A DNA stretch of 64,000 nt from a phage: the NCBI GenBank assembly GCA_026683435.1, contig GCA_026683435.1_4866.1; one strand, 5' to 3'. This document shows positions 21,825-39,018 of the stretch, piece by piece. The notes under the pieces were generated by a model, which ran no database searches, was not told where the DNA came from, and saw only the letters and a program-made list of their open reading frames with translations. Positions within the stretch are counted from its first letter, which is position 1, and each line of letters begins with the position of its first letter. A program made the position numbers and the translations under genes.

Positions 21825-22757
21825 ATGAATAAATCTAAGTCAGGGTTGCACATCTTCTCGATAGGTATCGTCGCGGAAGATAAACCTCGTGGTGCCACTC
21901 GAGTTAAAGTCATCCCTATCGAAGTTAACTTTATTAATCCTACAGCTGTCGATGCAACAGAGACACCTGTAGAGAAGCAACACAACAGTTTAAGTGGTAC
22001 TGACAACCTTACTGTAAAGCAAGGTAATGCCATCACTGCAAAATGGATGAAGTCCAACAGCAACCGGGTTAACCCTCCGGATGTGAAAAAAGAAGACTAT
22101 GTAAGAATCTGGCGTATCGGTGAAACCGATATGTACTTCTGGGAAGATTTAAACAACAGTAACGTTAAGCGACTGGAAGATGGGGTATATGCCTGGTCTG
22201 CTGACCCAGTAAACCAGATGGCCGATGACCTCTCTAACGCCTACGTACTGAATGTCTCCCCGATGGATGGTCACGTTACTTTACGCACCAGTATGACTAA
22301 CGGTGAGAAAAATGCGTATTTGCTCCAGCTGAATACCCGTGACGGGTTTTGCCAGTTAGTGGATGACGAAGGGCGTAAGTTCTACCTCAACTCTCCAGAG
22401 GATGACTTAGGGTTTGAAAACGCCTGCCGGTCGAAGATTAATATCAATAAAGAGGACGCTTTCATTTATGCTAAACGTTCTATTAATCTCGAGACAAAGA
22501 CGATTAACGAGAAGTGCGAAACTCGCAACTCTACAGCGTCGAAAAACATGGCATGGACGACTGAAGACTGGAAGACCACATGCCCAACGAATCTATTTAC
22601 CGGTAACCTGGAAGTAGGTAAGGATTTCCTCTATAATGGCAAGGGTGAAGGTAAGGGTACATTCACAGTTACCGAATCGGTTATCGGCGGCATCACCTTT
22701 AGTCTTCACTTGCATACTGGCCATGGTCCGGGCAACGACACCAGTACACCGCACTAA
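21825..22757 (+). CDS. hypothetical protein (310 aa), His/Gly-rich C-terminal tip
   Basis: SD GAGGAGGG upstream; C-terminus ...FSLHLHTGHGPGNDTSTPH. Confidence 0.55.
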   Translation: MNKSKSGLHIFSIGIVAEDKPRGATRVKVIPIEVNFINPTAVDATETPVEKQHNSLSGTDNLTVKQGNAITAKWMKSNSNRVNPPDVKKEDYVRIWRIGETDMYFWEDLNNSNVKRLEDGVYAWSADPVNQMADDLSNAYVLNVSPMDGHVTLRTSMTNGEKNAYLLQLNTRDGFCQLVDDEGRKFYLNSPEDDLGFENACRSKININKEDAFIYAKRSINLETKTINEKCETRNSTASKNMAWTTEDWKTTCPTNLFTGNLEVGKDFLYNGKGEGKGTFTVTESVIGGITFSLHLHTGHGPGNDTSTPH

Positions 22758-22918
22758 TTTAATTACGTGTGAGCTGTATATTGTGACAATAAACCTCCTA
22801 ACTGTAACGATAACCCAAATCGCTTGTACACGGTTAGCCACTTTTTTCGCACAAAAGCCGGTTTATTGTCAACTAATTTACGAGACGGGGCAGTTAATAT
22901 GCCTCGAAGTACAAGTAG

Positions 22919-22946
22919 TTGAACATAGGGTTCTTCTGCTATCATT
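22919..22946 (+). promoter_or_regulatory. candidate sigma70-like promoter for the BhsA-like gene
   Basis: TTGAAC (22919-22924), 15-16 nt spacer, TATCAT/ATCATT (22940-22946), about 20 nt upstream of ATG 22966. Confidence 0.25.
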
Positions 22947-22965
22947 TGTTAATGGAGATAAGTAA

Positions 22966-23175
22966 ATGAGCATTCGTGAAATCACCGCAGGCAGCGACGT
23001 TTCTGGTCTGGTAGAAGCAGGCACTGTTCAGGTTTCTGGACTGAGCACCGTTACCGAAGTTACCGAAGCGCTGGCTAAGAAAGCCGAAGCTGAAGGCGGC
23101 GTAGCATTTAAAGTTACCGCTTGTGGCGGCAACAACAAAATGTTCGGCAACGCCATCTATTACGTAAACGCGTAA
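22966..23175 (+). CDS. DUF1471 (BhsA/YdgH-like) domain protein without signal peptide
   Basis: AGTVQVSGLSTVTEVTEALAKKAEAEGGVAFKVTACGGNNKMFGNAIYYVNA parallels the enterobacterial BhsA C-terminal domain (VGTISA..LEEQLAQKADEMGAKSFRITS...GTAVIYK); an in-frame stop sits directly before the ATG, so no signal peptide; SD GGAGAT. Confidence 0.55.
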   Translation: MSIREITAGSDVSGLVEAGTVQVSGLSTVTEVTEALAKKAEAEGGVAFKVTACGGNNKMFGNAIYYVNA

Positions 23176-23189
23176 TCGGCCTGCAGGCA

Positions 23190-23249
23190 AAAAAAAGATA
23201 TAGGTACCCTACTCCCAACGGGAGTAGGGTTTACCTTTTATTTTTTTCG
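23190..23249. terminator. bidirectional rho-independent terminator
   Basis: A-tract, stem ACCCTACTCCC / GGGAGTAGGGT with loop AAC, then TTACCTTTTATTTTTTT; overlaps the stop of minus gene 23238..24500. Confidence 0.7.
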
Positions 23250-24500
23250 TGCTTTGTAGCGATGCATTTCAACAAATGGCTTACCCCAAGCCCCGAAAGG
23301 CCCGACGATCGCCTGCGCGTCGTTTACCAAATTCTGGTTATACCAACGCGCGTTCCCCAACAAAAAGTTTTCCCGGTCGAAGAATGTGGTATTAAAGACC
23401 CACTCCCCTTCTTCCCAGGTCGGCCAGTACCCTACACATTTACCAATACGGTTAAAGATAGGACCTAGCGTCTTCTTCCCATCTGGGTCAGTCGGGTCTT
23501 TTAAATAGAACCGGCCCCAGATAGCGTTGTGGCTTATTCCGTGAATCTCTTTTTCGAGATACGGGTTGTCTATCGTAAAGATAAACGAGGATTCGTGCGT
23601 CAGCAACGCTTTTAACGTTTCTGAGTTACGAATACGTTGAACGGACGTAGGCGTACTTAAATCACCTACACCGATGGCGTCCCAATCGTAATAGCGACGG
23701 GTTTCCAATACAATCTTCGCCACGCTAAGGTTTGGCAGACTCAGCATAATCGCACGGTCGCTGAAATAGCCCTGCGGTGGCAACCAATGCAGAATACCCC
23801 CGATGACGAACCCAACGGTTTTCCCTGTAATGGAATCGGGTAAGGTCAACATTAACGAAGAATAGTAATCTCGCGTAGTATCGAGTTTGTTCATCGTTAA
23901 ACCGGATATGGGGTAAGTCTTCACTTTACCAATATTCGCCATCACTAGACAGCCGATGTCGGGTGTGTTGGCTCTCCGCACGATGTTACCAGCGCCGGTT
24001 AAGCGAACACCCACTGGGTCAGATTGGTGCGGTACCCATTGACCGTTGATGTTGTACAGTACCCCGGTACGGTATTTCTCTTTCCACTCATCGTCGCAGA
24101 CTACAACAACGTCGTGTGCATCATCAGGATTGAAGTCCTGAGTGTAGTGGTACCCAGGAGGGCACAGGTGCGTTTCTACGGGCACATCTGCATTAATAGA
24201 CTGGTAATGTGCCTCAACGAATTCGAGCTTCGGTAGGCCCTTCCCAAGCGTTGGAATCGCGATTCCTGACTTGGTGTTTAACCAATCTTGCAACGTGTCC
24301 GTACGGTTTTGTAAATCAGCCAGGTGATACTGGCTATAGAAGGTATATTCGGCACCTAGTGCTTCTAGTCCTACTTCGAAAAAGTGGTAGTTAGCACAAA
24401 GGGTATTTAAGGGCTGCGTGACATCGATGGTTCCCCAAGTTCGGGTGTCTCGAGAGAAGCCAAAAGCGCTGTCGGCCCGCACTTGATAAGCAGTAGTCAC
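23238..24500 (-). CDS. hypothetical protein (420 aa)
   Basis: Long ORF divergent from the fibre genes. Confidence 0.55.
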   Translation of the reverse strand: MTTAYQVRADSAFGFSRDTRTWGTIDVTQPLNTLCANYHFFEVGLEALGAEYTFYSQYHLADLQNRTDTLQDWLNTKSGIAIPTLGKGLPKLEFVEAHYQSINADVPVETHLCPPGYHYTQDFNPDDAHDVVVVCDDEWKEKYRTGVLYNINGQWVPHQSDPVGVRLTGAGNIVRRANTPDIGCLVMANIGKVKTYPISGLTMNKLDTTRDYYSSLMLTLPDSITGKTVGFVIGGILHWLPPQGYFSDRAIMLSLPNLSVAKIVLETRRYYDWDAIGVGDLSTPTSVQRIRNSETLKALLTHESSFIFTIDNPYLEKEIHGISHNAIWGRFYLKDPTDPDGKKTLGPIFNRIGKCVGYWPTWEEGEWVFNTTFFDRENFLLGNARWYNQNLVNDAQAIVGPFGAWGKPFVEMHRYKARKK

Positions 24501-24567
24501 TGGCTGTTTCCTCTAAGGATTCGGGTCATAGTATGAACTCGACGCCCTCAGAGAAAAGGAGTGTAAA

Positions 24568-27500
24568 ATGGCTGTCGTCCCTGACCCGCACTATCAAGAA
24601 CCGGGGAATATGCAGACCGGTGAAGCGGTAACGCCGATCGGTACTAAGTACCGGATGCTGTTCCCCGCACACGCCCCCTTTTATACCACATCCCTGGTGG
24701 TCAAGAGTGGCGGCAAGAAATTAACATTAGGTGATGATTACGTCATCACCCATGCGTACGTTACGGGCATGGCCCGCACTGGTCATGTTTGTCACGGCGG
24801 CGTGTGGATTACCAACCCGAAATACCAGAGTGGCTTTACACTCGATTACCATGCAATTGGTATCGGCGAAGCCACTGCAGAAATGATCGCCGCAGAACGA
24901 GAAGCGAATAAAGATCGGTATCCCGTAGACTGCCAATGGGATAACGTCATTGGGGATTTATATTTCCCACCGGTCGATATTAAGTTCGACTGGGAAAACT
25001 GGCGTGGCGAATCCGAGTTGATGGAAGCCATTGTTGCGGTTGGTGCTAAGCTCGGTGAAGCGATCAGCCGCGTTGACCCGATTGCTCGTAACACGTTAGA
25101 CCTTCAATATCGCGCCGGCGTCACGCTTATCACATCCGAGCAGTATGCGACGTACGACGGTACTGGCGGCTACACGTATAACGCGTCACGTCGTCGTTAT
25201 TCGTTATCTTACCAGAATACGACATTCGATGCGTATTCGTTAGCGGTAAAATACCGTTTACCGAGCATTCCACCGGAAACAACGTTGAATCCAGGCGAGT
25301 TGATCGATTGGATGCTCTGTTACGCAAACGGTGGGGCAAGTATCCTGCGTCTTCAGTTGAAGCAACGCGCGATTTATCTTACCTTAACGACAGCGATTGG
25401 TTCCGGTTCGTCTAATTACAGCTATACGTTGACGACTGGCCTGACCGATACCGAGTTGGCGGGTGAGGTTGAGTTTAGCGTGGTCAGACGCGAAGGTAAC
25501 GGCATTTACGACATCACCGTTAAAACAAGCAAGCAAACCGTTAACTACAGCTTTAACGTTGACAACCCACCGAGCGAATTTGCGCCAGGGTATCAGAAAA
25601 CTAATGTCGCAAAATGGTTGAAGTTTAAATCGGGCGTCAACCTAAACTGGTGGGCAGGTGAGAACGATTACGTCCAGATTCGTTCATTACCAGGCGCACC
25701 GGCACCTGACGTTAACAATGACGTGTACCAGCTGCTGGTAAAATATCACCAGATTGTCGATAAACTGTACCGTGATGCACCGGCACACACACACGTGCCG
25801 CGCAAGGATAACCCGCATCGCGATTCGTGGGGCGCAATCCGTGCTTTGGAGAATAACGGTATTGCTTCGGACGCGACACTGGTATACGGAAAAACGCAAC
25901 CGCAGCTGACAGATTACGTTAACAATCTGTTGCCGAAACTGTCAACGCTGGCGAATAAGCTTTTACGCTTACCGACGGCTGCACAGTCTATCAACGGCAC
26001 GTTCGGCATGAAGCCTGGCCTGACTTCAATAACGTCAGCAGTGGGTACCGATGAGTCTGAAGGCGTGGGTGCACAATTCACGGTTGACCCGAGGGTTATC
26101 CGTTTTATTGGACGCGATTCGCAAACCGTTAACGCCGGGAACAATCCGATTACATGGCAAGGTGGGGCTAACCAGCTCATCCTTTATCCGGATTCCCGTG
26201 GATTGGAGTTCAACGGTAAGAAACTGTTGGACCCTACTACGGTCGGGCCGTACCTGCCGGGTAACGAATCAGGTGGTGATGGACTGTTTTACGGAGCATC
26301 CACAGCTACTGTAACCATTAACGGTAACGGTATTCAGTCGGTTCCGTTCATTTGTACTTTTGTTCCACCGGAGTCCGACGACCTTGGCCTGATGGCTGTC
26401 CGTTTGTTGGCTACTGAATTCGGTGATCGTGAGGACTTGGCCGCAACGCCGGCACTCATCAAGAAATTGGATCAGCAGTTTACGGGCAAGTTGGTTGCCG
26501 TTAAATCGTACATCAACGACATGCCACTGACGAGTTCTATTTACATCGATAAAACTAACTTCGGCTTATCGAACGTACAGAACATCCCAGATGTACAATT
26601 GCCGATTTCCCCGCTCCAACAAGCTGAGCTGGACAAGTATGCAGTCGTCGGTCACAAACACACTTCTGCCGCGTTCGGGATTAAGCGTGCAACAACGACG
26701 GAGTTCGGTTTAGTACAGTTCGGCACCGCGGTTGACGATGCCACGCTGGCATTAGACGGCGGTGAGGTCATCCGACAGGCGGACGCCATCACAGAGATAG
26801 TGAAGGTTGCGAAGACAGTCGACTCTGGTGCTTCAATCAACATTATTCGTTACGGTTTACCCGGCACGGATATCATTGAAAACGGCATCACTTACACCGA
26901 CTGGATGGTTACTATTAAAGCGAACGATTATTTCGTTGGTCGCGAGTACAAAGTACCTCTCTCCACATTTAACTTGGCGGAGCTATTCCCAGCGACGCAC
27001 GAAGATGCCGAGTTTGGCGTGTATGTTGACGCGGCGGGCGATGATGGCAAGTACATTATCTACGAAAATCCAAATACGGCAGAAACTGAGACGATGACTA
27101 AAATAGGTTCCATCGTCACCAGTGAAACCGGTGTGGTGTTTGTAGAAATCCGCAACGTGACGCGTTTAGGTGAGTTTCGTGAATTAGGCGAGCATATCGA
27201 GGATGATAACGCCCATATTCGTCGGGGCATGACGCAAGCTGAATTCGGATTTACTTACGGTACCGGCGGGCCTGTGTGGTCCACGGGTGCACCGGGTACA
27301 AAACGTATAGATGCCGATTGGCGTTACGCGCAGGCTAGCAGCTATACGCCTATGTTGAAAGCGGACTACGATCCGGCTGCTGATAAATGGACGTTTAAAA
27401 CAACCGGTTTAACTGTAGCCGATTATCGTTTTGTCCACAACACATTCCCAATGTTCCAGAATAACGGCATTACCGCGACGTGGACACCTTTAACCGCAAC

Positions 27501-28281
27501 AGCGGACAGTGTGCTAGAAACGGTAATTGGGTGTTGCCATCACTCGGCCACGTTCATGCACCGTATTTCTGTACTCGTCGTACGCACCGCAGGGCGTATT
27601 ACCACTCCAGGCGGCGTGAGCACGTATGCGGGAATCGCGGTTAACTACGGACGTGCTGCTCAGGTTGTTATTGGCTTGAACGGTGTTACTGGTTCCGGCC
27701 ATGACTGGACGGCACTTAATCCATCGGTGCGTTTCAGCCACACGCGAACAGCGGACGGTATTTCGTTCGAGGGAACGATTAACATCGATTCCAAAACGAT
27801 TAACTTTGAGCTGACGCTAACCGCGACAACAAAGACGCTGAAATACACCTTGCAGTCGACCGGAGAGTCGTGGACTGAGGATTTGTCTACCCGTCTCCGT
27901 CCTGACTATATCGACTTGACGAAACTGATTACCGATCCGAGTACGCCGATTTATCACGGCGTGGGTGGTTTGTTTAGTTCCGACACCGAAGTGCGTTTGA
28001 CTTACGCTAACCTGAACACGATGCCGACAAAGAATCGTTATTACGCCACGTTCCTTGACTATGCGATTAACTATTCCGGCTTAAACCGCGCAAGATTCTT
28101 TACTGGCGTGGTGGATGCAGGTTCAACGATTAATGAGATGAACAGCGCGATGTGCAACTATTCATACAGTTCGTTCCGACCAGTGGATACAGGTAAAATT
28201 CCACTGGTGGCACACCCATCCAAGATGATGACGTTCAATCCGAAAAACACGTCAGCTCGAACACTTATTATTCGTGATTAA
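24568..28281 (+). CDS. putative tail fibre protein (1237 aa)
   Basis: SD AAGGAG; N-terminal domain (APFYTTSLVVK...LTLGDDYVI) shared with the next three genes; internal VVGHKHTSAAFGIKRATTTEFG motif paralogous to those in the next two proteins. Confidence 0.55.
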   Translation: MAVVPDPHYQEPGNMQTGEAVTPIGTKYRMLFPAHAPFYTTSLVVKSGGKKLTLGDDYVITHAYVTGMARTGHVCHGGVWITNPKYQSGFTLDYHAIGIGEATAEMIAAEREANKDRYPVDCQWDNVIGDLYFPPVDIKFDWENWRGESELMEAIVAVGAKLGEAISRVDPIARNTLDLQYRAGVTLITSEQYATYDGTGGYTYNASRRRYSLSYQNTTFDAYSLAVKYRLPSIPPETTLNPGELIDWMLCYANGGASILRLQLKQRAIYLTLTTAIGSGSSNYSYTLTTGLTDTELAGEVEFSVVRREGNGIYDITVKTSKQTVNYSFNVDNPPSEFAPGYQKTNVAKWLKFKSGVNLNWWAGENDYVQIRSLPGAPAPDVNNDVYQLLVKYHQIVDKLYRDAPAHTHVPRKDNPHRDSWGAIRALENNGIASDATLVYGKTQPQLTDYVNNLLPKLSTLANKLLRLPTAAQSINGTFGMKPGLTSITSAVGTDESEGVGAQFTVDPRVIRFIGRDSQTVNAGNNPITWQGGANQLILYPDSRGLEFNGKKLLDPTTVGPYLPGNESGGDGLFYGASTATVTINGNGIQSVPFICTFVPPESDDLGLMAVRLLATEFGDREDLAATPALIKKLDQQFTGKLVAVKSYINDMPLTSSIYIDKTNFGLSNVQNIPDVQLPISPLQQAELDKYAVVGHKHTSAAFGIKRATTTEFGLVQFGTAVDDATLALDGGEVIRQADAITEIVKVAKTVDSGASINIIRYGLPGTDIIENGITYTDWMVTIKANDYFVGREYKVPLSTFNLAELFPATHEDAEFGVYVDAAGDDGKYIIYENPNTAETETMTKIGSIVTSETGVVFVEIRNVTRLGEFRELGEHIEDDNAHIRRGMTQAEFGFTYGTGGPVWSTGAPGTKRIDADWRYAQASSYTPMLKADYDPAADKWTFKTTGLTVADYRFVHNTFPMFQNNGITATWTPLTATADSVLETVIGCCHHSATFMHRISVLVVRTAGRITTPGGVSTYAGIAVNYGRAAQVVIGLNGVTGSGHDWTALNPSVRFSHTRTADGISFEGTINIDSKTINFELTLTATTKTLKYTLQSTGESWTEDLSTRLRPDYIDLTKLITDPSTPIYHGVGGLFSSDTEVRLTYANLNTMPTKNRYYATFLDYAINYSGLNRARFFTGVVDAGSTINEMNSAMCNYSYSSFRPVDTGKIPLVAHPSKMMTFNPKNTSARTLIIRD

Positions 28282-28293
28282 GGAGATTTTTGA

Positions 28294-31200
28294 ATGAAAA
28301 CGTATCCTTACGATCCTCGGGGTGTAAATCCTGAGTGTCACTTCATCGAGGAACGTATCATCGACTCCGACAATCCTAACGATCGGGTGGTGATGCTAGA
28401 TCATCGCCCGTTTTTCGAAGGATTGGTGGTAAGGCTCGCCGGCTCGTCCATACCGCTTACCCGCGGGACGGACTATGAGCTGGAGTATGCTTTAACACCG
28501 TTGGACGACTCGGTGACGACCCCGGTGTTTTGCGGGGTGCATCTTATTAACCCTAAACTGCGTGGTGCGGTGGTCTTTGAAGGCCAGATGCTCGGGGGTA
28601 CGTTTTACAGTGGTTTGATTGAGATGTTGGATGAGCTAATTAAGGCTCTCAACAATCCAACGGCTGCAGATTGGCTGCTTTTAGGTAATCGACCCTCCCT
28701 GTACCCAGCCACCCCTGCAGCGGTAGCTTGGTCAGACATGCTGAATAAAAAGTATGTTGCCTCTGCAGTGCATGATGTGGAGTTAGATGCCGGGGCGGCC
28801 AACGAGCAGATTCGTGAAAAGCTTACTGAGCTGAAAGATGCGGTTTTGGGCTTAGGAACTGAAATCGCCACATTTAACTACCCCGGACACATTGCGTCGA
28901 CTAACCCCCATGGGACTACCGCGGCGCAGGCCGGTGCGCATCCTGTCAACCTGAAAACGCCAGATACTTTCCTGGCGTATGGAAAGACGTTGCGTCAATT
29001 AACCAGCGAGGTCCGTGCACTGGGCCTGCAACAATCGGATATCGACAAGTACATTTCTAAATGGGTATCGAAAGAATCCAAAGGGGTGTTTAACGCGACG
29101 ATATCCGGTACTCGTGCCCTGTTCCGTTCTCCTGCTGGTGAATCCGAAATTGTGTTCTCTGCTGAGGCATTCACTCTTAAATCTAATGGCTCTGTTGTGT
29201 TGGCGTGTGGGTATGCCGACACTACTGGAACCGTCCGGTTTATGGAGTGGAAAGCAGGCATCAATACATTACGTATTGAGTCGACTGGCAGTGCCTTGGG
29301 GATGGATAAGCTGACGCTTAATGGTACGACGTTACTGACCACAACTGCTCTCATGGGCTATCAACAAGACCCTGGTACCGGCGGTGGTACCGTTGACCCG
29401 GATGACAACAAACTGTACATTAGCGGGGTGAACGGCATCACTTTCACGGGTAAAGGGTCAAAAGCCGATCCCGTCACCGGGAAGGTCACAGCCAAACCCG
29501 CGACGACCTCTGAACCTGGCGTTGTGACGCTGACTGATAAGCCGAGCGATGTAGTCAAAGGGCAAGCAGCCACCCCGTCGGCGCTTTTGCCGTATGAGGG
29601 CGACCTGTCTTCGTACGTCAGGAAGACAACGCTGCTGAATAACCAGCCGATGAACACTGGTAGTCGAACGCTGACGAAAAAGGATTTAGGTTTAGACTTG
29701 GCTGATAACACAGCTGACGTCGATAAACCACTTTCTGATGCGTTGGCAGAAGCAGTTACCGGTCTTAGTGATAAAGGTCACCATCACAACTTCGCCGATT
29801 TACAGATCCCAACGGCTTCTCAAACAGTTCCCGGTATCGCTCGATATTCTACCAACCTAAACGGCTTGTCGGGTAATCGCGGCGTTACCCCGAACGTTCT
29901 GAACGATTTGTCAAAACGTTTAGACGTAGTTGCAGCTGCGCTAGCAAACGCGAAAGAGGATTCCGTGACCGATTTTGCCGCTGTGCGTGGTAAGACTTGG
30001 ACTGTGGGATCTACACGTACCACCCTCGCCGTAACGGATTTGAATTATTTCTATCTGTTAAATGGTGCACGTAAAGAGGGGACGGTATCTGGTTCGATAG
30101 ACCTGCAAACCACCCCGATGTTCCAGTGGTTCTCTCCAGATAACCGTATGGAAAGAACGTGGCAGAACGCGGTAATTAATATCGGTGACGGTATTGATTT
30201 TAGTGGGTTTGAGGTTGCCGTCCCGGAAACGAACTACGGTGCGCAGATTGGGTTAACGGCAACCGGCATGGGTGACTTATCGGTTGTTAACCTTTTAGCA
30301 AAAACGTGGGTTCGTTGCGATACAGGTAAACTACGTATTTGGGTTCGTGGCGGTGGTGCTGTTTCTGTTTATCTGGACGGTGTAATTATCGGTGCGGGTA
30401 TTACAGAAGCGGGGTATCTGGAGGCGACTGTCAAAGAGGGGTGGAAGCAACATTGCCTGGCGTTTCGTGCGGAATGTAACAATAGCGCGAAAGCAGCTGC
30501 TATACGCTTCACCATTTACGATGGTGATTACCCGGTTGCGGTGTCGGACAAAAACACCAAGGTCGCCCGTTTGCAGGAGTTTGTTAAGACCGCGAACGGT
30601 TTACGACATTATCTTTACGTGAACATGATAACCGACGCATTGTATTCACGTGCGGAACCCATTGTGGACACTGAAGGTATTAACCTGGAGCGTGGGTACA
30701 TTGGTTACATTGATGTACCCGAGACGGGATTGGTTGCAGGTACGACTTACGAGTTTGAAACGACGTTTGATTTTGGCATGGCGTCCGAACTTAAACGACA
30801 CTTCGAAACACGTCTGGCGCACGGAGTGAGTAATGCCGACTGGTCGTTGACGGATAACCCAAAAATGTTACCGCTAAACAAAGTCGATCCGTTGCCTAAA
30901 CAGTGGCTTTATGCGTACCCTAATAGTCCAGTTTCTGGTAACCACTATATTCGATTAGACCGAGGGTTATTCGATTATAAATTTGATAGTACCATTTCAA
31001 GCCTAGTGTTTGTTGGAGCGGTTGTCTCCACAGAAAGCGCATCACCGTACTGCTGGTTTACACCAAGCAACCCGAAAGAAAAAGGGATGGCGACGTTTGA
31101 AGGTTCTGTGGTGGTCGATGTTGATTTGTCGGAAGCACAAACAGTTCGCGTTCGCGATATCACATTAAACTTCATGGCCCCGTCTGCAGATGATAAAAGC

Positions 31201-32424
31201 AAGACTAGGGTACTGAGATGGAGTGGCAATCGTCCAGAATTGAATTGTGGCTTCATCACGTCTCCTTATAACCAAGCAACTGGAGGCATCATCTCGACCA
31301 CGCAGGGCAGTGTTACAAATAAGGTGCTTGAAAATCCGAGGGTAATTAAAAACCTGACGAGCCAATCTACCGAGTGTTTAGATTTTCTTTCGGTTCATAC
31401 CGATAGTGAGCCTGCGCCGCTTGGAGATCGTTGGCTTGTACGTTATCGATACATTGTTGATACGCAGGTACTGCGCATCTCAATGGTTTCTAAGTTGATA
31501 GCCAATCCGCTGGTGCAGGTTTACGAAATGGAATACGACATTCCGTTTGATGCGATCGATTACTTTAAAGGTGGGGCGCTAGCCATCCACGTTTCCGGTA
31601 TTGAAACTGGAGACAACGTGACTATTAACCACGGTTTGATGCAGCCGATCATCTCAGATGTGGATATAAATCGTTTCCATTATTTACGTTCACTGTTTGA
31701 GTCGTATATTGAAAGGACACCAGATAGACAGTCTTCCGGCCACGAGGAGATGACAGTAACAACGGTACCTTTTGCGTCATTTGGAGATAACGTTGATCAC
31801 CCGGTTACGGAATACATCACGATGTCTGCTGCAAGTGAAGGTTATCCGGAACTTGCACCGAACGGTAAACTCCCCGCGCCGTTTTATAAAGGGCTGCAGA
31901 AACGTGGTGCTCCGCTACTTGAGTCGGCTCCTGCCGACTATACGGCTAACGGTGGTGAATGGAAGAACGGCTTTATGCGGGCCTATCGCCCAACTCAAAC
32001 TGAGCGTTTTGTGTCGGTAAATGGGACAATGCTCTCTAACTACCCTGGATATATCATCGTGGGCAGTGAGAAAATTCCGGGTAATGTTATACCTTTCGGT
32101 GCGTCGACAACAGCTGTTCAGATATCCAGGACTCTTGCCCGCACGAAACCGATGCAGCCAATTCACATCGTGTTCGTGCCTCCGGAAGGTTCTGTGCCGC
32201 CGTTGCAAGCGAAGTTCACTATTAATGGCGTAGGTAGTAGTGGTAATCCGATGTTCGTGATTACTGAAACGTCACCGATTGAACTTCGCACTGGAGGCGA
32301 GACGATTCTCATTGAGAAGCGTAATCCATTCCACATCCCCACCAGGACATGGGATTGGATTTTACAAACGTTAGATACTGAACGTAGAAACGAAGGCAAC
32401 AACTCGGGTGAGTGGGCCTCTTAG
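28294..32424 (+). CDS. putative tail fibre protein (1376 aa)
   Basis: Shared N-terminal domain (RPFFEGLVVRLAG...LTRGTDYELEY); GHHHNFADLQIPTASQTVPGIARYS motif. Confidence 0.55.
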   Translation: MKTYPYDPRGVNPECHFIEERIIDSDNPNDRVVMLDHRPFFEGLVVRLAGSSIPLTRGTDYELEYALTPLDDSVTTPVFCGVHLINPKLRGAVVFEGQMLGGTFYSGLIEMLDELIKALNNPTAADWLLLGNRPSLYPATPAAVAWSDMLNKKYVASAVHDVELDAGAANEQIREKLTELKDAVLGLGTEIATFNYPGHIASTNPHGTTAAQAGAHPVNLKTPDTFLAYGKTLRQLTSEVRALGLQQSDIDKYISKWVSKESKGVFNATISGTRALFRSPAGESEIVFSAEAFTLKSNGSVVLACGYADTTGTVRFMEWKAGINTLRIESTGSALGMDKLTLNGTTLLTTTALMGYQQDPGTGGGTVDPDDNKLYISGVNGITFTGKGSKADPVTGKVTAKPATTSEPGVVTLTDKPSDVVKGQAATPSALLPYEGDLSSYVRKTTLLNNQPMNTGSRTLTKKDLGLDLADNTADVDKPLSDALAEAVTGLSDKGHHHNFADLQIPTASQTVPGIARYSTNLNGLSGNRGVTPNVLNDLSKRLDVVAAALANAKEDSVTDFAAVRGKTWTVGSTRTTLAVTDLNYFYLLNGARKEGTVSGSIDLQTTPMFQWFSPDNRMERTWQNAVINIGDGIDFSGFEVAVPETNYGAQIGLTATGMGDLSVVNLLAKTWVRCDTGKLRIWVRGGGAVSVYLDGVIIGAGITEAGYLEATVKEGWKQHCLAFRAECNNSAKAAAIRFTIYDGDYPVAVSDKNTKVARLQEFVKTANGLRHYLYVNMITDALYSRAEPIVDTEGINLERGYIGYIDVPETGLVAGTTYEFETTFDFGMASELKRHFETRLAHGVSNADWSLTDNPKMLPLNKVDPLPKQWLYAYPNSPVSGNHYIRLDRGLFDYKFDSTISSLVFVGAVVSTESASPYCWFTPSNPKEKGMATFEGSVVVDVDLSEAQTVRVRDITLNFMAPSADDKSKTRVLRWSGNRPELNCGFITSPYNQATGGIISTTQGSVTNKVLENPRVIKNLTSQSTECLDFLSVHTDSEPAPLGDRWLVRYRYIVDTQVLRISMVSKLIANPLVQVYEMEYDIPFDAIDYFKGGALAIHVSGIETGDNVTINHGLMQPIISDVDINRFHYLRSLFESYIERTPDRQSSGHEEMTVTTVPFASFGDNVDHPVTEYITMSAASEGYPELAPNGKLPAPFYKGLQKRGAPLLESAPADYTANGGEWKNGFMRAYRPTQTERFVSVNGTMLSNYPGYIIVGSEKIPGNVIPFGASTTAVQISRTLARTKPMQPIHIVFVPPEGSVPPLQAKFTINGVGSSGNPMFVITETSPIELRTGGETILIEKRNPFHIPTRTWDWILQTLDTERRNEGNNSGEWAS

Positions 32425-32459
32425 GACGGACTGCCTGCGGGCGGGTAGTCCGTAGGTAA

Positions 32460-32503
32460 ACCGCCCTTCCGTTATTGGGAGGGCGGTCTCCGTTTTATTA
32501 CAG
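32460..32503 (+). terminator. hairpin with T-tract (terminator/attenuator) between fibre genes
   Basis: ACCGCCCT..AGGGCGGT stem followed by CTCCGTTTTATTAC. Confidence 0.4.
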
Positions 32504-32519
32504 ATTAGGAGTGTTTGCA

Positions 32520-35500
32520 ATGCCGAGAGAAGATGCGGCGCAGTTTAACGGTACGCTCAGTACCGCTACTTACCCGAACCGTTATTCGGCGGTCATTCCC
32601 GTCGAAGCACCGTTCTATCGCATCGGGTTAACGTTAACCGTTACCGATAAAACAACCGGAACCAAACGCAAGTTAATAGAAGGTCTCGATTATTTCTTAG
32701 GACATTACTTCCAGGAATTAGCCGAGGCTGAGAACGATGCAATATACGGCAGCATAATGCTGCTGAACGCCACAGAGGTAGAATACGAGTTACTGTCGGT
32801 TGGTCGACAGTATCGCATCCCTGCTTCTGAAATCGGCAAGTATCTGGTTAAGACAGATATGAAAGACCCGCGTAACTGCGATTGGTCTGAGCTGATGAAA
32901 TATCCGCCGATTATCTCGCCAATCGACCCGCCAAAAGACCTCGAAGAAGCGATTCTTCACGATGAAATCGTAAAGGCGTTGGAAGATATCCGTCTGGGTA
33001 TTTTAGAGCGCGCCCACGAGCTGGATGAGGCTTTTGCCGAAGTTACCGATTTGATTTATCAGAACGGTAAGCAGGTGTTTGATGACGAAATGTATCAACA
33101 CCACCTGATTAAAAATGCACATGGTTACACCTGCGGTGACATTGGCGCTCTCCCGGTACTCGGCAAAGCCGTAGATGCGACTAAGGCATTCGGACGTACC
33201 CTGGCAGAGCTAGTGACGTTAATGTCTACCAGCGGCATCCAACAGAAACACGTTGACATGCTTCTGGATAATACCCTGGGTGATTTACTGGGCCGTATGC
33301 GTGTTCTGAATAACGACGCGATTACGTTCCAAACAACGTCTGGTCACGTTATCAGCATGAAGGGTGAGAAGTTCATCATCACCTCGACAAAACCGCTGGT
33401 ATTAAAAGCTGACCAGGATAACAACGAACCGGGCATCGCTACGGAGTTCAGTGCTGGTCTGAACACGCTTTGGGTTCACTCGGGTAAAGCAGGTGACAAG
33501 TGGGGCGCTTATGATGCAGGTGTGCTTGCACCTGTGTATAACAGCGTGTATCTCGTTACGCCGGATATGGTTAAGATGTACTTGACCTCGGTGAAGATAC
33601 TTCCAGCAAACGCCTACTTCAAGTCCAGCGACACGTTGAAGATTTACGGCTCTGGTAAAGAAACAAACAAACTTTACATGAATGCGGAGCTGCCTGCAGC
33701 AACCACAACTGTGCAGGGTTTGTTTGCGATTACTAACCTTTCGGCGTCCGCTGCAGCATCCACAGCGATTTCCCAAAAAGCTGTTACTGACTTGAAGAAC
33801 AAACTCGACGGATATGCGGACGACACGTATACAGTCAACGGTAAAGGGTTTGTGTTAGACGAAAACGGTCAAATGCATTTAACCTTAACCGCGTCGGATT
33901 TCGGTATTGAGAAGATGAACAATACCGGGCCGCTGGAGAAACCGGTTACTAACGCGTTGCGCACCGTTCTATCAGGCAAAGCGCTTACAACGCACACCCA
34001 CACCATTGCCGATCTCGATAACGTGCCGTACGCATCCACGTCTGTTACAGGTTTGGCTAAACTGTGGGATGCTATTGACACCACAACAGATAAGATGGTT
34101 ACTGCCCGTCAGGGTTTCTTGCTCGAACAAAAGATCGGTACACTGAACGACAAGATTGCTACGTTATTACCGGCGTGGACTGTCGGCGGATCATCGTACG
34201 GCAACAATAACTTCTTGCCTATACCTGTCCAGGGGAACTACGAAGGGTATACCAAAAACCAAACCTGGCAGAAAGGTTTGGCGCGTTACGAGTCTGGTAA
34301 GGTTTACTCGCTCCGTAACGGTTCTAACGGGAACCCACCTGGTGACTGGGCTATCTATTACGCCTATGCTGATGTGTCGCCAAGCAATACGCTGGAAAAT
34401 ATGCAGCAGACGTCCGTACGTTATCGACCCGCTGGAATGTCGGCGTATCCTGGGGTGAATCTGGTTGCTATTGTGATTACCGGTACCGATGCAATGATCT
34501 GCTTAGGCAGTGACGGTGCGTACTACTTGGTCATCTTCGATGGGACGATTGACCATGCAAAACATCATCGTGTTGTTAAAGTGGTGTTGGGTGATTACAA
34601 GAACGGTAATGGTGCGGGCACAGTAACGACAGCACCGTGGGCTCCAAACGCTTCTACAGACGATTTGATTGTTTGTAATGAACGTGTCTACCTGTTGCGT
34701 ACGGTGCTTACCTCCGGTAACTATTTCGTGAGTATGCGTAGCATCGCACTCAACGAACTTAATCCGGGTGGTAGCAACACGTTTGTGGCGGATGCGTTAA
34801 CAGGCGGGATATTAACGTCGGGTGAAAACGTTTATCTGCGACAGGGACAGAAACGTGCACCTTCCGATGCGCTCCCAGCACCAGTTACACAGATCTACGC
34901 AGACGCGTTAGCGAAGTGGAACAATGCAACCAACTTTGTACATGGTCCTGAGTGTAATCACGCGATTGGTGTTGATGGGCTGAGCTTTCGTGTTGGTTTA
35001 ACGCCAACGGTTTGGTTTGCTTCTACTACAGGGCAAACTATTAACTTTAAACAATGGGTGTCAAGCTTTGTTGTCGACTGTAGCGCATTAACGGTAACGC
35101 TGGAAGGTGCTGATCGATTCCCTATTGTGGCTGATCTTACCACGGTTCGTTATAACGGTGGTACTGAGATTGGGATTCCAAGCCGGAAGTGGGGCGAAGG
35201 TCAAGCTAATAACCGAACCTTTGCAACATCGCAAGACAAGTATATCGTTTCGCAAGGACATGCAGGCGATCGCGACCTAATGCCGATTGTCACGATTACC
35301 ACGTTAGACGACGGTGTGAGTTGGTACGAGTACCTGTCGTGCGACTACAACTTCACTGCCAGAAGGTTTAGTGCGGTAACGTTAAACCAAGGTCGTGGTT
35401 CTATCTACGAGCTGGGTATGGCGTATCCACTGACTCTGGGAGCGAATTCCAGACTTATCTGGTTGTCACAGCCACGTTCCCGTTTGGCAATTGAGGTTGA

Positions 35501-37703
35501 GTTTGATCCGAACACCACTTACTCAGGTAAAGCGGGGTATGGCCCAACTAACAATCGACGTGTAGTGGATTCTACCACGTACGAGAATCTGTCGCAGATG
35601 TGCCACATTGTTACACCGGCGTCGCCTGGTACAGAGTTAAACGGCTGGTATTGCACAGGACCAGAAACATTCCCTTACCACAACGTTTCTGGCACTTTCA
35701 CGATTCATGCCGATCGGTTGACGCTGTCACAAGCCGAATGGGATAAGATGAAGCAGATGATCATCGACGGTGCACCGGCAGGCGCTGCGAATGGTTATGC
35801 TTCGGAATTTATCCTTGCCGCAAATAACGCAGGAAAGGCATTGTTCTCCGTTTGGTTCATCGGCATTGGTACGGCCACACCGCTCACGTTAGCACAAGTA
35901 GCATGTACGCGTACTGTGAACAACGTTAACGTGTTGGATATCTACTACTTTACACTGAAACCAACAATCAGCAACGGGCAGGTAACATTCCCCGCAGCGA
36001 TATTGGCTTTGTTTGACTTCTATAACAACCTCGACTATGACTTGAACTATGCTACGTTGGGAGAGATAACGGGAGGAAAAACACGCCGGCCGGGACAACC
36101 TACCATGGTGTCGGTAGATGGTACGCAGTTCGGGTTGTATCTTCCACACACGTTAACCTTGCGCCAAATTGGCGACTTGGGTGCGCTTAACTACGCTGTT
36201 GGTCTTACGTTGTCTAATGGTACCTGGACGCGTTCTTCTGCTCCACACGGCGTTGGACGTATGGCACCGTCACACACTCCAGTCAGTCCAGCTTATCTGG
36301 CACATCGCGATCAAGTGATGTTACACAACTCATCTCTCGACTACGTCTATTGTGGTGGTATCGCAACGTCGTCGAGAGATTTTGTCGCGGCTCCTAATTT
36401 TAGTGGCCCGACTGAATCGGTTGTCATTGCTGGTGTGGAAACAGCTGAAGGTTGGCTGGTATATGTGACTGAGGAAGTTGACCTGCGTTTCGGCTCGAGC
36501 ACTTATAAGCTGCCTACGTGGTATATTGACCTCAGCGCAGCATTTCCAACAAACCATCAGAACCGGACATTCTACCTGCACGCCAAGGTAGAAAATGGTA
36601 CACCGAAGTACGTAATGGACGTGATTCAACATCCAGACACTGAAACGGAACTCTATATCGGGTATGTTAAAACGGGCTCGTCGCGAGTCGTCGAGACTAA
36701 CGTCGAACATGCTAAGCGATTAGGGGCGGTGAAACAACTGTTGGAACATGCGGCGGTTGAGAATAAGCATGATGTGGAAGTGGGAAGGGACGCAGCAACG
36801 GGCAGACTGGCACCATTGCGTAAAGAAGCGATGGGTCCTTTGTCGATCGATGCTACGAAAGGCTATCTGGATAGTCAGTTGCTTTATACCGTATCTGACG
36901 CACAGCGTCGCGGTAAACCGATGGTCTCCAAACGTTTCGAAGGCTTGAAAACTTTGCCGGCGTTTACTCAGGCAAACAAGTCGGGGGCGTTTTGGAAACA
37001 TCCTACAACAATTGCGACGGTAACGGCCGATGAGAACGGTGAAGCGGCATCGTTGGGAATGGAGTGGGTAGGTATCCCTACGCCTGCTTTCTCTCCGACC
37101 TCAGGAACGATGATAGTGGTGATACAAAGTAAATTCGTCGTCCCAGGTACACCGGGAGTAGAAACGACCTTTAATGTTCACGTTGCCCCATGGGAGGCGG
37201 TGGACGGCTTTTTCTACAACATCGAGGCGGAAGGTACGGATGTTAACATTGACGAAAATCCAGAAGTGTTATTGCCGTCACCACATACCGTGCACCACAA
37301 ACAGCACTCTCTGCCAGCAGGCGTGCCGTGCACCTTTACATTTGTCGCGGCGGTAAGTTCTTCAGCGCTCGAAACAGCTAACCAGCATATTTGCTCTTGG
37401 CTTTTCACGGACGCTGGGGGTCTACCAATCACCACCGATCTTTCGGATAGTAAGATTCAAATCTTACCAGCGGCGGGAGAGACCAACGGCACACCAGTTG
37501 TTCTGAACAGTCGTAGCTACACGTTTACGAATGTGACAGGTGCAATCCCGGTTGTTACCACGGGCGCTCAGGGTTTATTCCCACCACCGATCGTGGCGTG
37601 GGATGGCGATGATCTTACGTTAACGATTGCGCACGATTGGGTGAACGAGAGAGGATGGCAACAGCCTGATATTATCCAGGTCAATCTTATGTTCCGTACC
37701 TAA
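32520..37703 (+). CDS. putative tail fibre protein (~1727 aa)
   Basis: ORF track 32475..37703 starts at TTG inside the upstream hairpin; ATG at 32520 has SD AGGAG. Shared N-terminal domain (APFYRIGLTLTV...IEGLDYFLGHYF); THTHTIADLDNVPYASTSVTGLAKL motif. Confidence 0.55.
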   Translation: MPREDAAQFNGTLSTATYPNRYSAVIPVEAPFYRIGLTLTVTDKTTGTKRKLIEGLDYFLGHYFQELAEAENDAIYGSIMLLNATEVEYELLSVGRQYRIPASEIGKYLVKTDMKDPRNCDWSELMKYPPIISPIDPPKDLEEAILHDEIVKALEDIRLGILERAHELDEAFAEVTDLIYQNGKQVFDDEMYQHHLIKNAHGYTCGDIGALPVLGKAVDATKAFGRTLAELVTLMSTSGIQQKHVDMLLDNTLGDLLGRMRVLNNDAITFQTTSGHVISMKGEKFIITSTKPLVLKADQDNNEPGIATEFSAGLNTLWVHSGKAGDKWGAYDAGVLAPVYNSVYLVTPDMVKMYLTSVKILPANAYFKSSDTLKIYGSGKETNKLYMNAELPAATTTVQGLFAITNLSASAAASTAISQKAVTDLKNKLDGYADDTYTVNGKGFVLDENGQMHLTLTASDFGIEKMNNTGPLEKPVTNALRTVLSGKALTTHTHTIADLDNVPYASTSVTGLAKLWDAIDTTTDKMVTARQGFLLEQKIGTLNDKIATLLPAWTVGGSSYGNNNFLPIPVQGNYEGYTKNQTWQKGLARYESGKVYSLRNGSNGNPPGDWAIYYAYADVSPSNTLENMQQTSVRYRPAGMSAYPGVNLVAIVITGTDAMICLGSDGAYYLVIFDGTIDHAKHHRVVKVVLGDYKNGNGAGTVTTAPWAPNASTDDLIVCNERVYLLRTVLTSGNYFVSMRSIALNELNPGGSNTFVADALTGGILTSGENVYLRQGQKRAPSDALPAPVTQIYADALAKWNNATNFVHGPECNHAIGVDGLSFRVGLTPTVWFASTTGQTINFKQWVSSFVVDCSALTVTLEGADRFPIVADLTTVRYNGGTEIGIPSRKWGEGQANNRTFATSQDKYIVSQGHAGDRDLMPIVTITTLDDGVSWYEYLSCDYNFTARRFSAVTLNQGRGSIYELGMAYPLTLGANSRLIWLSQPRSRLAIEVEFDPNTTYSGKAGYGPTNNRRVVDSTTYENLSQMCHIVTPASPGTELNGWYCTGPETFPYHNVSGTFTIHADRLTLSQAEWDKMKQMIIDGAPAGAANGYASEFILAANNAGKALFSVWFIGIGTATPLTLAQVACTRTVNNVNVLDIYYFTLKPTISNGQVTFPAAILALFDFYNNLDYDLNYATLGEITGGKTRRPGQPTMVSVDGTQFGLYLPHTLTLRQIGDLGALNYAVGLTLSNGTWTRSSAPHGVGRMAPSHTPVSPAYLAHRDQVMLHNSSLDYVYCGGIATSSRDFVAAPNFSGPTESVVIAGVETAEGWLVYVTEEVDLRFGSSTYKLPTWYIDLSAAFPTNHQNRTFYLHAKVENGTPKYVMDVIQHPDTETELYIGYVKTGSSRVVETNVEHAKRLGAVKQLLEHAAVENKHDVEVGRDAATGRLAPLRKEAMGPLSIDATKGYLDSQLLYTVSDAQRRGKPMVSKRFEGLKTLPAFTQANKSGAFWKHPTTIATVTADENGEAASLGMEWVGIPTPAFSPTSGTMIVVIQSKFVVPGTPGVETTFNVHVAPWEAVDGFFYNIEAEGTDVNIDENPEVLLPSPHTVHHKQHSLPAGVPCTFTFVAAVSSSALETANQHICSWLFTDAGGLPITTDLSDSKIQILPAAGETNGTPVVLNSRSYTFTNVTGAIPVVTTGAQGLFPPPIVAWDGDDLTLTIAHDWVNERGWQQPDIIQVNLMFRT

Positions 37704-37750
37704 CAGATAGCGCTATGGGGCAAGGAAGCCCCAATCAAAGGAGTTTGGCA

Positions 37751-38953
37751 ATGGCCGAAATCATTCATCAGTACCCGCTCGACCTTACCGGGACATTAAC
37801 GTCGAACGCCGTTACACGGCGTATTACGTTAGGTTCTGGTAAAGTTAACCGGGCTTTTGCTTTTCCTGACGGAGCTTTCTACGCGGATACCTTCCGCTTG
37901 GCAGCTGCGAATAAACCAGGTGTCTACCCGTACAAACGCGGTACAGACTACGAACTGATTTTTGCACATACTGCATATCAGAAAATGACCAAGAACCGTG
38001 AAGTGGTCATGGGTGTGGTGGTAACTAACTCGGCCATTCCTACTGATATCGAAGTCTCTGCGCAAGTCGTTGGTGGTTTTCAGTCTGCGAACGTCGAAGG
38101 CATCCGACAAGCGATTGCGTCGTTGAAAATTGAAGACCGTGTGGTGGACTTCAAGGATCTTCGAAACGTACCCGATACGTTCCCGTCCGCCCCGACGTAT
38201 AAAGACCTTGGCGATATCTACGGTTTTGAGTATATCATTACCGTACTCGCGGGGATTAAAGATGCGATTAACTCCGGCTCTGCAGTACAGCTGGAAGAAA
38301 TTAAAGGTATTCTGGATGGTCTGAAAAACGACTTCCTCGACGCCTTAAATACCCACATCAACGCCGAAGGTAACGTACACAATCTCGACATTCATCAGGT
38401 TAATGGCCTGACGGAGACGGAGATTCGTGCCCTGATTCAAAGTGTACAGACTGCCATTGACGCCACTATCAAAGATATCGGCGACTTAAGAGCAGCAGAC
38501 ACAGCGTTGGGGCAACGCATCGATGCAATTGTGGCTTCGTTAGCCGCGTGGAACGACCAGCTTAACGTGGTTGCTCAAAATTACCAGAAAATGTCGTTAG
38601 CATTAGCTAACCTTAATTCTCTGGTGTTGCAATTACAGAAGATGGTTAACGATCTTCAGTCTGCACTGAATAAAACAAATCAGCGCGTCACGGATCTTGA
38701 GAATCAGGGCAAAGACTTCCAACAGCAAATTGATAACCTGCAAGGACAAATCAACAGTCTTAAAACTCAGGTTGTAAATAACACCAACGCAATTTCGCAG
38801 GCAAACCAGAATCTGGCGAACCATGCGGCTGCGGATAACCCACACCCGAATTACCTCCATAAACAGTATGGCGGTGTTGTGCAGGCTGCTGTTCACGTCA
38901 ACAACAGCCTCACCTCGCGCGACGATGTTCAAGCTGAAGCGGGTACTAAGTAA
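37751..38953 (+). CDS. fibre-associated protein with C-terminal coiled coil (~400 aa)
   Basis: ORF track 37715..38953; ATG at 37751 with SD AAGGAG; shared N-terminal domain (GAFYADTFRLA...KRGTDYELIF); long Q/N/L-rich heptad region; ends ...NPHPNYLHKQYGG. Confidence 0.5.
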   Translation: MAEIIHQYPLDLTGTLTSNAVTRRITLGSGKVNRAFAFPDGAFYADTFRLAAANKPGVYPYKRGTDYELIFAHTAYQKMTKNREVVMGVVVTNSAIPTDIEVSAQVVGGFQSANVEGIRQAIASLKIEDRVVDFKDLRNVPDTFPSAPTYKDLGDIYGFEYIITVLAGIKDAINSGSAVQLEEIKGILDGLKNDFLDALNTHINAEGNVHNLDIHQVNGLTETEIRALIQSVQTAIDATIKDIGDLRAADTALGQRIDAIVASLAAWNDQLNVVAQNYQKMSLALANLNSLVLQLQKMVNDLQSALNKTNQRVTDLENQGKDFQQQIDNLQGQINSLKTQVVNNTNAISQANQNLANHAAADNPHPNYLHKQYGGVVQAAVHVNNSLTSRDDVQAEAGTK

Positions 38954-38960
38954 CTTGTTT

Positions 38961-39007
38961 ACGAGCCGGACTATGTTTATGGACATAGTCCGCTCGTTCT
39001 ACTTTTT
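38961..39007 (+). terminator. rho-independent terminator / regulatory hairpin directly upstream of Cys-rich gene A
   Basis: ACGAGCCGGACTATG / CATAGTCCGCTCGT stem (one bulge) followed by TCTACTTTTT, then SD AAGGAAG and ATG 39019. Confidence 0.6.
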
Positions 39008-39018
39008 AAGGAAGCGTA

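Follow-up and report, generated by a model that had tools for sequence, protein, structure and literature searches.

The four-gene array and its shared N-terminal domain

We analyzed a 64,000-nucleotide stretch of phage DNA (the window; contig GCA_026683435.1_4866.1 of NCBI GenBank assembly GCA_026683435.1), in which an array of four genes at positions 24568 to 38953 encodes three giant proteins and one short protein that begin with a common domain. All 14,386 bases of this array align end to end with complete genomes of Seoulvirus, the SPN3US-like jumbo myophages, with a DNA identity of 97.7% for Salmonella phage JN03 and 94.8% for SPN3US (a difference of ~5%). The open reading frames (ORFs) starting at 24568, 28294, 32520, and 37751 are, gene for gene, direct orthologues of SPN3US_0170, SPN3US_0169, SPN3US_0168, and SPN3US_0167, with the same gene order and lengths, and we refer to their products as gp170, gp169, and gp168 (the giants) and gp167. 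An earlier note, made from the sequence alone, had placed the four starts correctly, and each has an AGGAG ribosome-binding site 8 to 9 nucleotides upstream. Two longer alternative starts in a mechanical ORF list (TTG at 32475 and ATG at 37715) differ from the starts annotated in SPN3US. The gene that diverges from the array on its upstream side is the orthologue of SPN3US gp171 and a homologue of phiKZ gp130 (phmmer E of 5.4e-11 over amino acids 20 to 402).

PHROG profiles annotated as "virion structural protein" matched each giant over its whole length, with 1865.8 bits for gp170, 1973.4 for gp169, and 2403.8 for gp168. gp167 was covered in full by PHROG 2163 (E of 2.8e-108; profile positions 5 to 380 of 574). 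The publications on SPN3US consulted here list only gp168 to gp170 as paralogues, whereas we found that gp167 carries the same N-terminal domain (hereafter the N-domain).

The N-domain is homologous in all four proteins, as the earlier note had proposed, but it spans ~130 to 160 amino acids rather than the ~80 first suggested, and gp167 has AFY in place of PFY. Its most conserved stretch is the signature (P/A)F(Y/F)...G.DY. PHROG 2163 matched all four N termini (E of 2.6e-14 to 2.8e-108). Pairwise BLAST directly connected only some pairs of N termini, whereas profile-profile comparison with hhalign, using family alignments from six phages, gave probabilities of 90 to 100% for six of six pairs. 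A hidden Markov model (HMM) built solely from the first 150 amino acids of phiKZ gp131, gp133, gp134, and gp135 picked out exactly these four ORFs among the 496 six-frame ORFs of the window (E of 3e-14, 2e-12, 1e-10, and 1.5e-7; the next-best ORF scored 0.86), and leave-one-family-out HMMs regained the omitted protein at E of 1e-11 to 1e-13. Searches of phiKZ with the family HMMs connected gp167 with gp135 (E of 1.8e-31) and gp134 (3.7e-23) and connected gp170, gp169, and gp168 with gp131 (4.7e-17, 1.7e-14, and 1.5e-8, respectively). As judged from these comparisons, the N-domain and the gp131-like N-domain found at the fiber attachment sites of phiKZ are homologous.

In an AlphaFold2 (AF2) monomer model of gp168, the N-domain is predicted to be β-rich, with a predicted local distance difference test score (pLDDT) of ~90 over amino acids 11 to 120, and to be followed by a helix with a pLDDT of ~67 to 80. 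By alignment, an equivalent of this helical segment is present in all four proteins. An exhaustive profile search of 1.84 billion representatives detected the N-domain in 3049 cluster representatives (1688 at E ≤ 1e-10), always at residues ~1 to 165 of proteins that range from 155 to more than 2100 amino acids. This constant N-terminal position on proteins of widely varied length is the signature of a reusable adaptor with varied cargo. A word-index homologue search returned almost only gp167 orthologues for the N-domain alignment and three fragments for an alignment of the HxH module described below, with the word index limiting both searches. We also observed that the linker following the N-domain, D(W/F)..L...P..FP(P/S) (e.g., amino acids 133 to 150 of gp167, positions 38147 to 38200), resembles the repeated DWxxLxxxPxxFPPxxHxH of "tail collar fibers gp4" (PDB 9d93), with a weak profile match (E of 1e-4). 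The HxH of this linker is kept in phiKZ gp134 and gp135 and lost in the proteins of the window.

Comparison with phiKZ revealed both shared and divergent features. phiKZ gp131, gp133, gp134, and gp135 share with the array the N-domain, the predicted helix after it, and an H-x(5-7)-N-P-H motif, and phiKZ gp130 followed by gp131 to gp135 reproduces the divergent arrangement of the array beside its gp130 homologue. phiKZ encodes one long paralogue (771 amino acids, with a C-terminal seven-bladed propeller) and three short ones (~460 amino acids), in contrast to the three giants (1237 to 1727 amino acids) and one short protein (400 amino acids) encoded here. According to the family HMMs, gp167 stands nearest to the short phiKZ proteins gp133, gp134, and gp135, and the giants stand nearest to gp131. 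A published listing of gp168 as a homologue of phiKZ ORF145 (PMC5105663, Table 4) was not reproduced, as the family HMMs matched the N termini of gp131 and gp133 alone and left gp145 and gp146 unmatched.

The same gene order, a gp130-like gene on the minus strand and then three giant paralogues and one short one, was present in Cronobacter phage CR5, Vibrio phage pVa-21, the Erwinia phages phiEaH2, Caitlin, and Phobos, and a 239-kb metagenomic contig (L011). In the five named phages, the motifs are kept and the distal parts are only 8 to 36% identical to those of the array. Unlike the array, the pVa-21 locus has annotated tail fiber assembly genes interspersed among the paralogues.

Histidine motifs, shaft modules, and distal regions

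A collinear shaft module of ~350 amino acids is common to the giants (hhalign probabilities of 99.8 to 100%), and near its end lies an HxH segment (HKH at amino acid 696 of gp170, HHH at 496 of gp169, and HTH at 492 of gp168). The paralogous histidine segment that had been pointed out in the giants is therefore real and occupies homologous positions in the aligned module, but calling it His-rich is an overstatement, since it holds only two or three histidines. Across 45 gp168 orthologues with identities from 96% down to 22%, H492, H494, and D498 never vary, and in six phages the orthologues of gp169 and gp170 retain the HxH. The sequence context, LGL..V.NT.D..KP.S......L..K....HxH...D followed by A(S/T).T..G, recurs in 78 actinophage records annotated as minor tail or tail fiber proteins (tblastn, 33 to 48% identity over 45 to 90 amino acids), and PHROG tail fiber and minor tail families match the module weakly. 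Because of its conservation across orthologues, its recurrence in actinophage tail genes, and its matches to PHROG tail families, we regard the HxH segment, at the level of sequence, as a conserved tail-fiber-type module. The minor tail and tail fiber proteins of Arthrobacter, Gordonia, and Tsukamurella phages have only this short module in common with the giants, lack a gp131-like N-domain, and belong to unrelated phages.

The likeness to histidine repeats of long tail fibers that the earlier note had drawn is an analogy only, and the corresponding Pfam repeat families score below their thresholds. In T4 gp37, HxH motifs from three chains reportedly coordinate iron along the fiber axis. The gp37 tip and the giants are alike in having a short HxH in a fiber-like context, but each giant carries one HxH rather than a collinear series.

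A second motif, H-x(5-7)-N-P/A-H, which the earlier note had not recognized, is carried by all four proteins. It follows the helix at amino acids ~195 to 210 in gp167, gp168, and gp169, and it lies at a similar position (amino acids ~185 to 210) in phiKZ gp131, gp133, gp134, and gp135. In gp170 the motif is displaced to amino acids 407 to 417 because an insertion of ~205 amino acids precedes it. The motif recurs one more time in each of the four proteins. In gp167, this second copy accounts for the C-terminal segment that the earlier note had pointed out: NPHPNYLHKQYGG is indeed present, at amino acids 363 to 375 of 400 and after a stretch matching many coiled-coil Pfam families, but it represents a motif different from the HxH, its NPHPNY being part of the second H-x(5-7)-N-P/A-H copy. 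In the giants, the second copy ends a third shared module, likewise absent from the earlier note, which we termed M (probability of 93 to 99%). We considered M as a repeat of the N-domain and rejected this idea on an hhalign probability of at most 12%. Neither the HxH shaft module nor M was detected in the phiKZ proteins.

Two insertions interrupt this common plan. The gp170 insertion (positions 25150 to 25767), between the helix and the first H-x(5-7)-N-P/A-H motif, is poorly conserved, at 21% identity to its phiEaH2 counterpart. Phages phiEaH2, Phobos, and CR5 and contig L011 have this insertion in common with the window, and it is missing from Caitlin and pVa-21. An extra segment of ~49 amino acids (e.g., GPGVNDVKGTGTYLRGDGAWVETYSVDELTTLLNGGTVPPSQL) occurs immediately after the first motif in one clade of gp168 orthologues (L011 10001-15211, P0083, P0085, P0086, P0089, P0090, and P0097 to P0099) and is unmatched in gp169 and gp170 from the same contig. 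Between the first motif and the HxH lie 275 to 291 amino acids in all three giant families across six phages; in L011 the distance is 282 amino acids in gp170, 286 in gp169, and 328 in gp168.

Conservation declines from the N terminus outward. Relative to phiEaH2, the N-domain, helix, and shaft are 64 to 77% identical, M is 48 to 59% identical, and the distal parts are 28 to 36% identical; relative to CR5, the distal parts are 9 to 16% identical. Conserved proximal modules with diverging distal parts are what one expects of tail fibers. Of the four proteins, gp167 shows the highest conservation, with 81% identity to its phiEaH2 orthologue along its whole length.

An AF2 monomer model of gp168 amino acids 541 to 1727 (pLDDT of 84, predicted TM-score of 0.68) consists of β-rich globular domains strung in a chain, with low confidence in the linker that surrounds the second copy of the H-x(5-7)-N-P/A-H motif. 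The C-terminal two-thirds of gp168 is thus predicted to form a chain of globular β domains and not a thin fiber. Foldseek matches of this model were mostly β-propellers (endosialidase, GH43, GH130, and GH74 enzymes, and the T7 nozzle), with E of 3e-8 to 1e-3 and low TM-scores, accompanied by weak matches to lectin, carbohydrate-binding module, and phage receptor-binding folds. The predicted distal folds are compatible with receptor- or glycan-binding hardware, with no family closely matched.

Table 1. Genes, modules, and motifs of the array and its immediate surroundings (window coordinates; modules in amino acids)
Feature	Position	Strand	Modules	Remarks
gp171 orthologue (phiKZ gp130 homologue)	23238..24500	-		Divergent from the paralogue array; SPN3US_0171 in annotation
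gp170 orthologue, 1237 aa	24568..28281	+	N-domain 1-155; lineage-specific insertion ~195-400; shaft 414-759; M 763-905; variable distal part 906-1237	PHROG 7557 match along full length
gp170 HTHVPRKDNPH	25786-25818	+
gp170 HKH	26653-26661	+
gp170 HIEDDNAH	27193-27216	+
gp169 orthologue, 1376 aa	28294..32424	+	N-domain 1-146; helix; shaft 203-561; M 763-852; variable distal part	PHROG 8078 match along full length
gp169 HIASTNPH	28888-28911	+
gp169 HHH	29779-29787	+
gp169 HFETRLAH	30799-30822	+
Terminator-like hairpin	32460..32487	+		12-bp stem with 8 G-C pairs, then a T-run; in the 95-nt gp169-gp168 gap; top-ranked such site in 22500-40500
gp168 orthologue, 1727 aa	32520..37703	+	N-domain ~10-125; helix 141-188; shaft 197-564; globular β-rich region 565-1295; M 1296-1440; hypervariable distal domain 1441-1727	PHROG 7449 match along full length
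gp168 HHLIKNAH	33099-33122	+
gp168 HTH	33993-34001	+
gp168 HAAVENKH	36747-36770	+
gp167 orthologue, 400 aa	37751..38953	+	N-domain 1-150; helix; coiled-coil-like region ~211-357; conserved C-terminal 35 aa	PHROG 2163 match
gp167 HINAEGNVH	38354-38380	+
gp167 HAAADNPH	38822-38845	+

Proposed placement at the baseplate and possible assembly of the four proteins

Published work on SPN3US places the orthologues of the array in the virion, with gp168 to gp170 associated with the tail. Mass spectrometry of purified SPN3US detected gp168, gp169, and gp170, which a tailless mutant lacked (Thomas et al. 2016; Ali et al. 2017; PMC5105663, PMC5694885, PMC10052503). These three proteins form the SPN3US "Paralog family C," which was related to phiKZ gp131 and described as "baseplate/tail fiber candidates" (Thomas et al. 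2016; Ali et al. 2017), and gp168 is expected from published work to be essential. gp167 was also detected in the SPN3US virion (44.8 kDa, 85 spectra, 70% coverage), without a family or function being given there (PMC5694885, supplementary table 1), and gp171 is an essential tail protein (PMC5105663). All four SPN3US orthologues, gp167 to gp170, are thus present in purified virions by mass spectrometry. Together with the loss of gp168 to gp170 from the tailless mutant and the homology of the N-domain to the phiKZ gp131 type, these findings support the view that the four products belong to the virion tail and have in common an N-terminal attachment domain, along with fiber-type sequence modules.

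In phiKZ, gp131 was placed in the tail or at the baseplate periphery by published immuno-gold labeling and cryo-electron microscopy (cryo-EM), and a 2026 structural atlas describes 12 sites of fiber attachment under gp130, with six gp131-like N-domains and a bundle of six helices making up each site (PMC13250141). The candidate occupant of each site is a hetero-hexamer of three gp131 chains with one each of gp133, gp134, and gp135 (PMC13250141). From the observed homologies, modules, conservation gradient, and synteny, considered alongside these data, we judge it very probable (roughly 85%) that the region is the peripheral baseplate and fiber module of a jumbo myophage of the SPN3US type (Seoulvirus, Chimalliviridae), in which N-domains dock, helices bundle, shafts oligomerize, and variable distal domains meet the host. 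By extrapolation from the phiKZ cryo-EM data, gp171 would serve as the platform protein beneath which the N-domains dock on the outer baseplate, and the helix of ~45 amino acids after each N-domain would join a helical bundle. The H-x(5-7)-N-P/A-H and HxH motifs may lie on the oligomer axis, possibly binding metal ions, and the distal domains would contact the host surface. gp167, being short, coiled-coil-like, and the most conserved, may act as a structural partner rather than as a determinant of host range.

Several results weigh against this placement of the region in the peripheral baseplate and fibers. Comparison with Pfam phage-fiber families, suggested in the earlier note, did not reach curated thresholds: gp170 scored 12.6 bits against Phage_fiber_2 (PF03406; cut-off of 22), gp168 scored 17.8 bits against PTR (PF12789; cut-off of 27), and gp169 matched neither repeat. 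The shaft region is of low confidence as an AF2 monomer, with a pLDDT below 50 in the HxH region of gp168. Similarity to the phiKZ proteins ends by amino acid ~220 with the family HMMs, and the C-terminal propeller of gp131 (4gbf) was not among the top Foldseek matches of the gp168 model. A Foldseek search with the model of gp168 amino acids 1 to 560 gave a best E of 0.2 against a copy of the PDB reaching to 2026-04-08, which predates the phiKZ atlas. Docking under gp171 consequently rests on sequence homology and the phiKZ model, as no solved structure in the libraries searched matches the N-domain, and the phiKZ site model is itself tentative, consisting of predicted structures fitted as rigid bodies into maps of 4.4 to 4.6 Å (PMC13250141). 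PDB sequence searches with gp168, gp169, the N-domain profile, and the HxH-module profile likewise gave no meaningful match except for the linker motif, in a copy that does not contain the phiKZ fiber N-domain chains.

How the four proteins combine is a separate question within the proposed baseplate and fiber module. The earlier note took four fibers with a common attachment domain to imply several distinct fiber species. This implication does not follow, because each phiKZ site holds six N-domains of several paralogues in one candidate hetero-hexamer; by analogy, the four proteins of the array may co-assemble.

It is quite possible, at somewhat less than an even chance, that the proteins form four independent homotrimers, each plugged into the baseplate by the shared N-domain. 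Twelve sites with six N-domains each would then hold 24 trimers, six of each kind, and four kinds of six trimers agree with the phiKZ site count as 12 sites of two trimers. The insertions also favor separate homotrimers, since the 205-amino-acid segment of gp170, absent in Caitlin and pVa-21, is accompanied by no matching change in the other paralogues and the 49-amino-acid segment of the gp168 clade is unmatched in gp169 and gp170, as is evident from the three spacings in L011. In addition, the distal two-thirds of gp168 is predicted to fold confidently alone. However, the phiKZ model has different paralogues within one complex at each site. In four published SPN3US datasets, spectral counts per unit mass, which are only roughly quantitative, consistently put gp167 1.5- to 2.4-fold above the giants, and this fits equal copy numbers poorly.

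Those same two observations point toward mixed hetero-oligomeric complexes of the kind suggested for phiKZ. A trimer of gp167 might, for instance, be joined by single chains of gp168, gp169, and gp170 to make a branched fiber with three different distal heads. Such an arrangement is a credible alternative that we hold only tentatively. Consistent with it, one of each paralogue type is retained in every related phage examined, the shafts are collinear with a nearly constant distance from the first motif to the HxH in three families and six phages, and the proximal modules of all four proteins evolve at almost equal rates. Nevertheless, single-paralogue insertions are unmatched in the other proteins, the lengths of the giants differ by up to 490 amino acids, and the phiKZ assignment comes from predictions docked at 4.4 to 4.6 Å. 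The similar but nonidentical shaft spacings together with the unmatched 49-amino-acid insertion lean against strict co-assembly without settling the matter. A specific form of co-assembly, which we regard as rather unlikely, is a heterotrimer of gp168, gp169, and gp170 along the collinear shaft, paired with a gp167 homotrimer at each of the 12 baseplate sites. This composition would invert the phiKZ proposal, in which a gp131 homotrimer is paired with a heterotrimer of gp133, gp134, and gp135, and each fiber would end in three different receptor-binding heads.

We find it improbable that the array chiefly supplies the peripheral baseplate with structural or enzymatic bulk instead of receptor-binding fibers, with β-rich regions that build a star-shaped outer baseplate or act as surface-polysaccharide hydrolases, as the dominance of glycoside-hydrolase and sialidase β-propellers among the gp168 Foldseek matches, the globular rather than fibrous gp168 model, and the term "baseplate/tail fiber candidates" in the SPN3US papers might suggest, given that the strong proximal-to-distal conservation gradient and the hypervariable C termini are typical of receptor-binding proteins.

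Surrounding sequence and implications

The putative hairpin between gp169 and gp168 (Table 1) might split or attenuate transcription of the array. The second-strongest terminator-like hairpin (positions 23206 to 23230, 11-bp stem) lies between the convergent genes for gp172 (plus strand) and gp171 (minus strand). A scan of the region limited to sigma-70-type promoters found fewer sites than in shuffled sequence and was uninformative, and Rfam and tRNA scans of the region gave no match. Past gp167, ~540 nucleotides (positions 38954 to 39494) correspond to a stretch without an annotated gene in SPN3US. This stretch holds overlapping ORFs at 39019 to 39411 (plus strand) and 39006 to 39371 (minus strand) and has no Rfam match, and the plus-strand ORF had no match in a Pfam scan.

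Just downstream of the array, we observed two adjacent radical-SAM ORFs (PF04055) and a DUF4376 protein (positions 41101 to 43216 and 43721 to 44392), in an order also found in SPN3US, phiEaH2, Caitlin, Phobos, CR5, and the metagenomic locus L011. A link of the radical-SAM pair to fiber maturation is conceivable. Among database records LR535901 to LR535917 (Salmonella phages SPFM1, 6, 7, 8, 10, 12, 14, 15, and 20), several match the fiber genes only as many short broken pieces, with fragmented "hypothetical protein" annotation, which suggests frameshift-rich assemblies rather than real gene decay.

Most of what we describe was known already. The paralogy of gp168 to gp170 and their link to phiKZ gp131 were published in 2016 and 2017, and the structural part that the N-domain plays in phiKZ was described in 2026. 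Our additions are modest: gp167 as the fourth member and the counterpart of phiKZ gp133 to gp135, a map of motifs and modules (N-domain, helix, first His motif, HxH shaft, M, and variable tip), and an N-domain that heads proteins in ~3000 clusters. To these we add a concrete question of assembly, homotrimers of each protein versus mixed complexes. For SPN3US, flagella are the reported receptor (PMC11428620). The proteins of the array most likely determine the attachment of SPN3US-type jumbo phages to Salmonella and related hosts, which would make them natural targets for host-range engineering.

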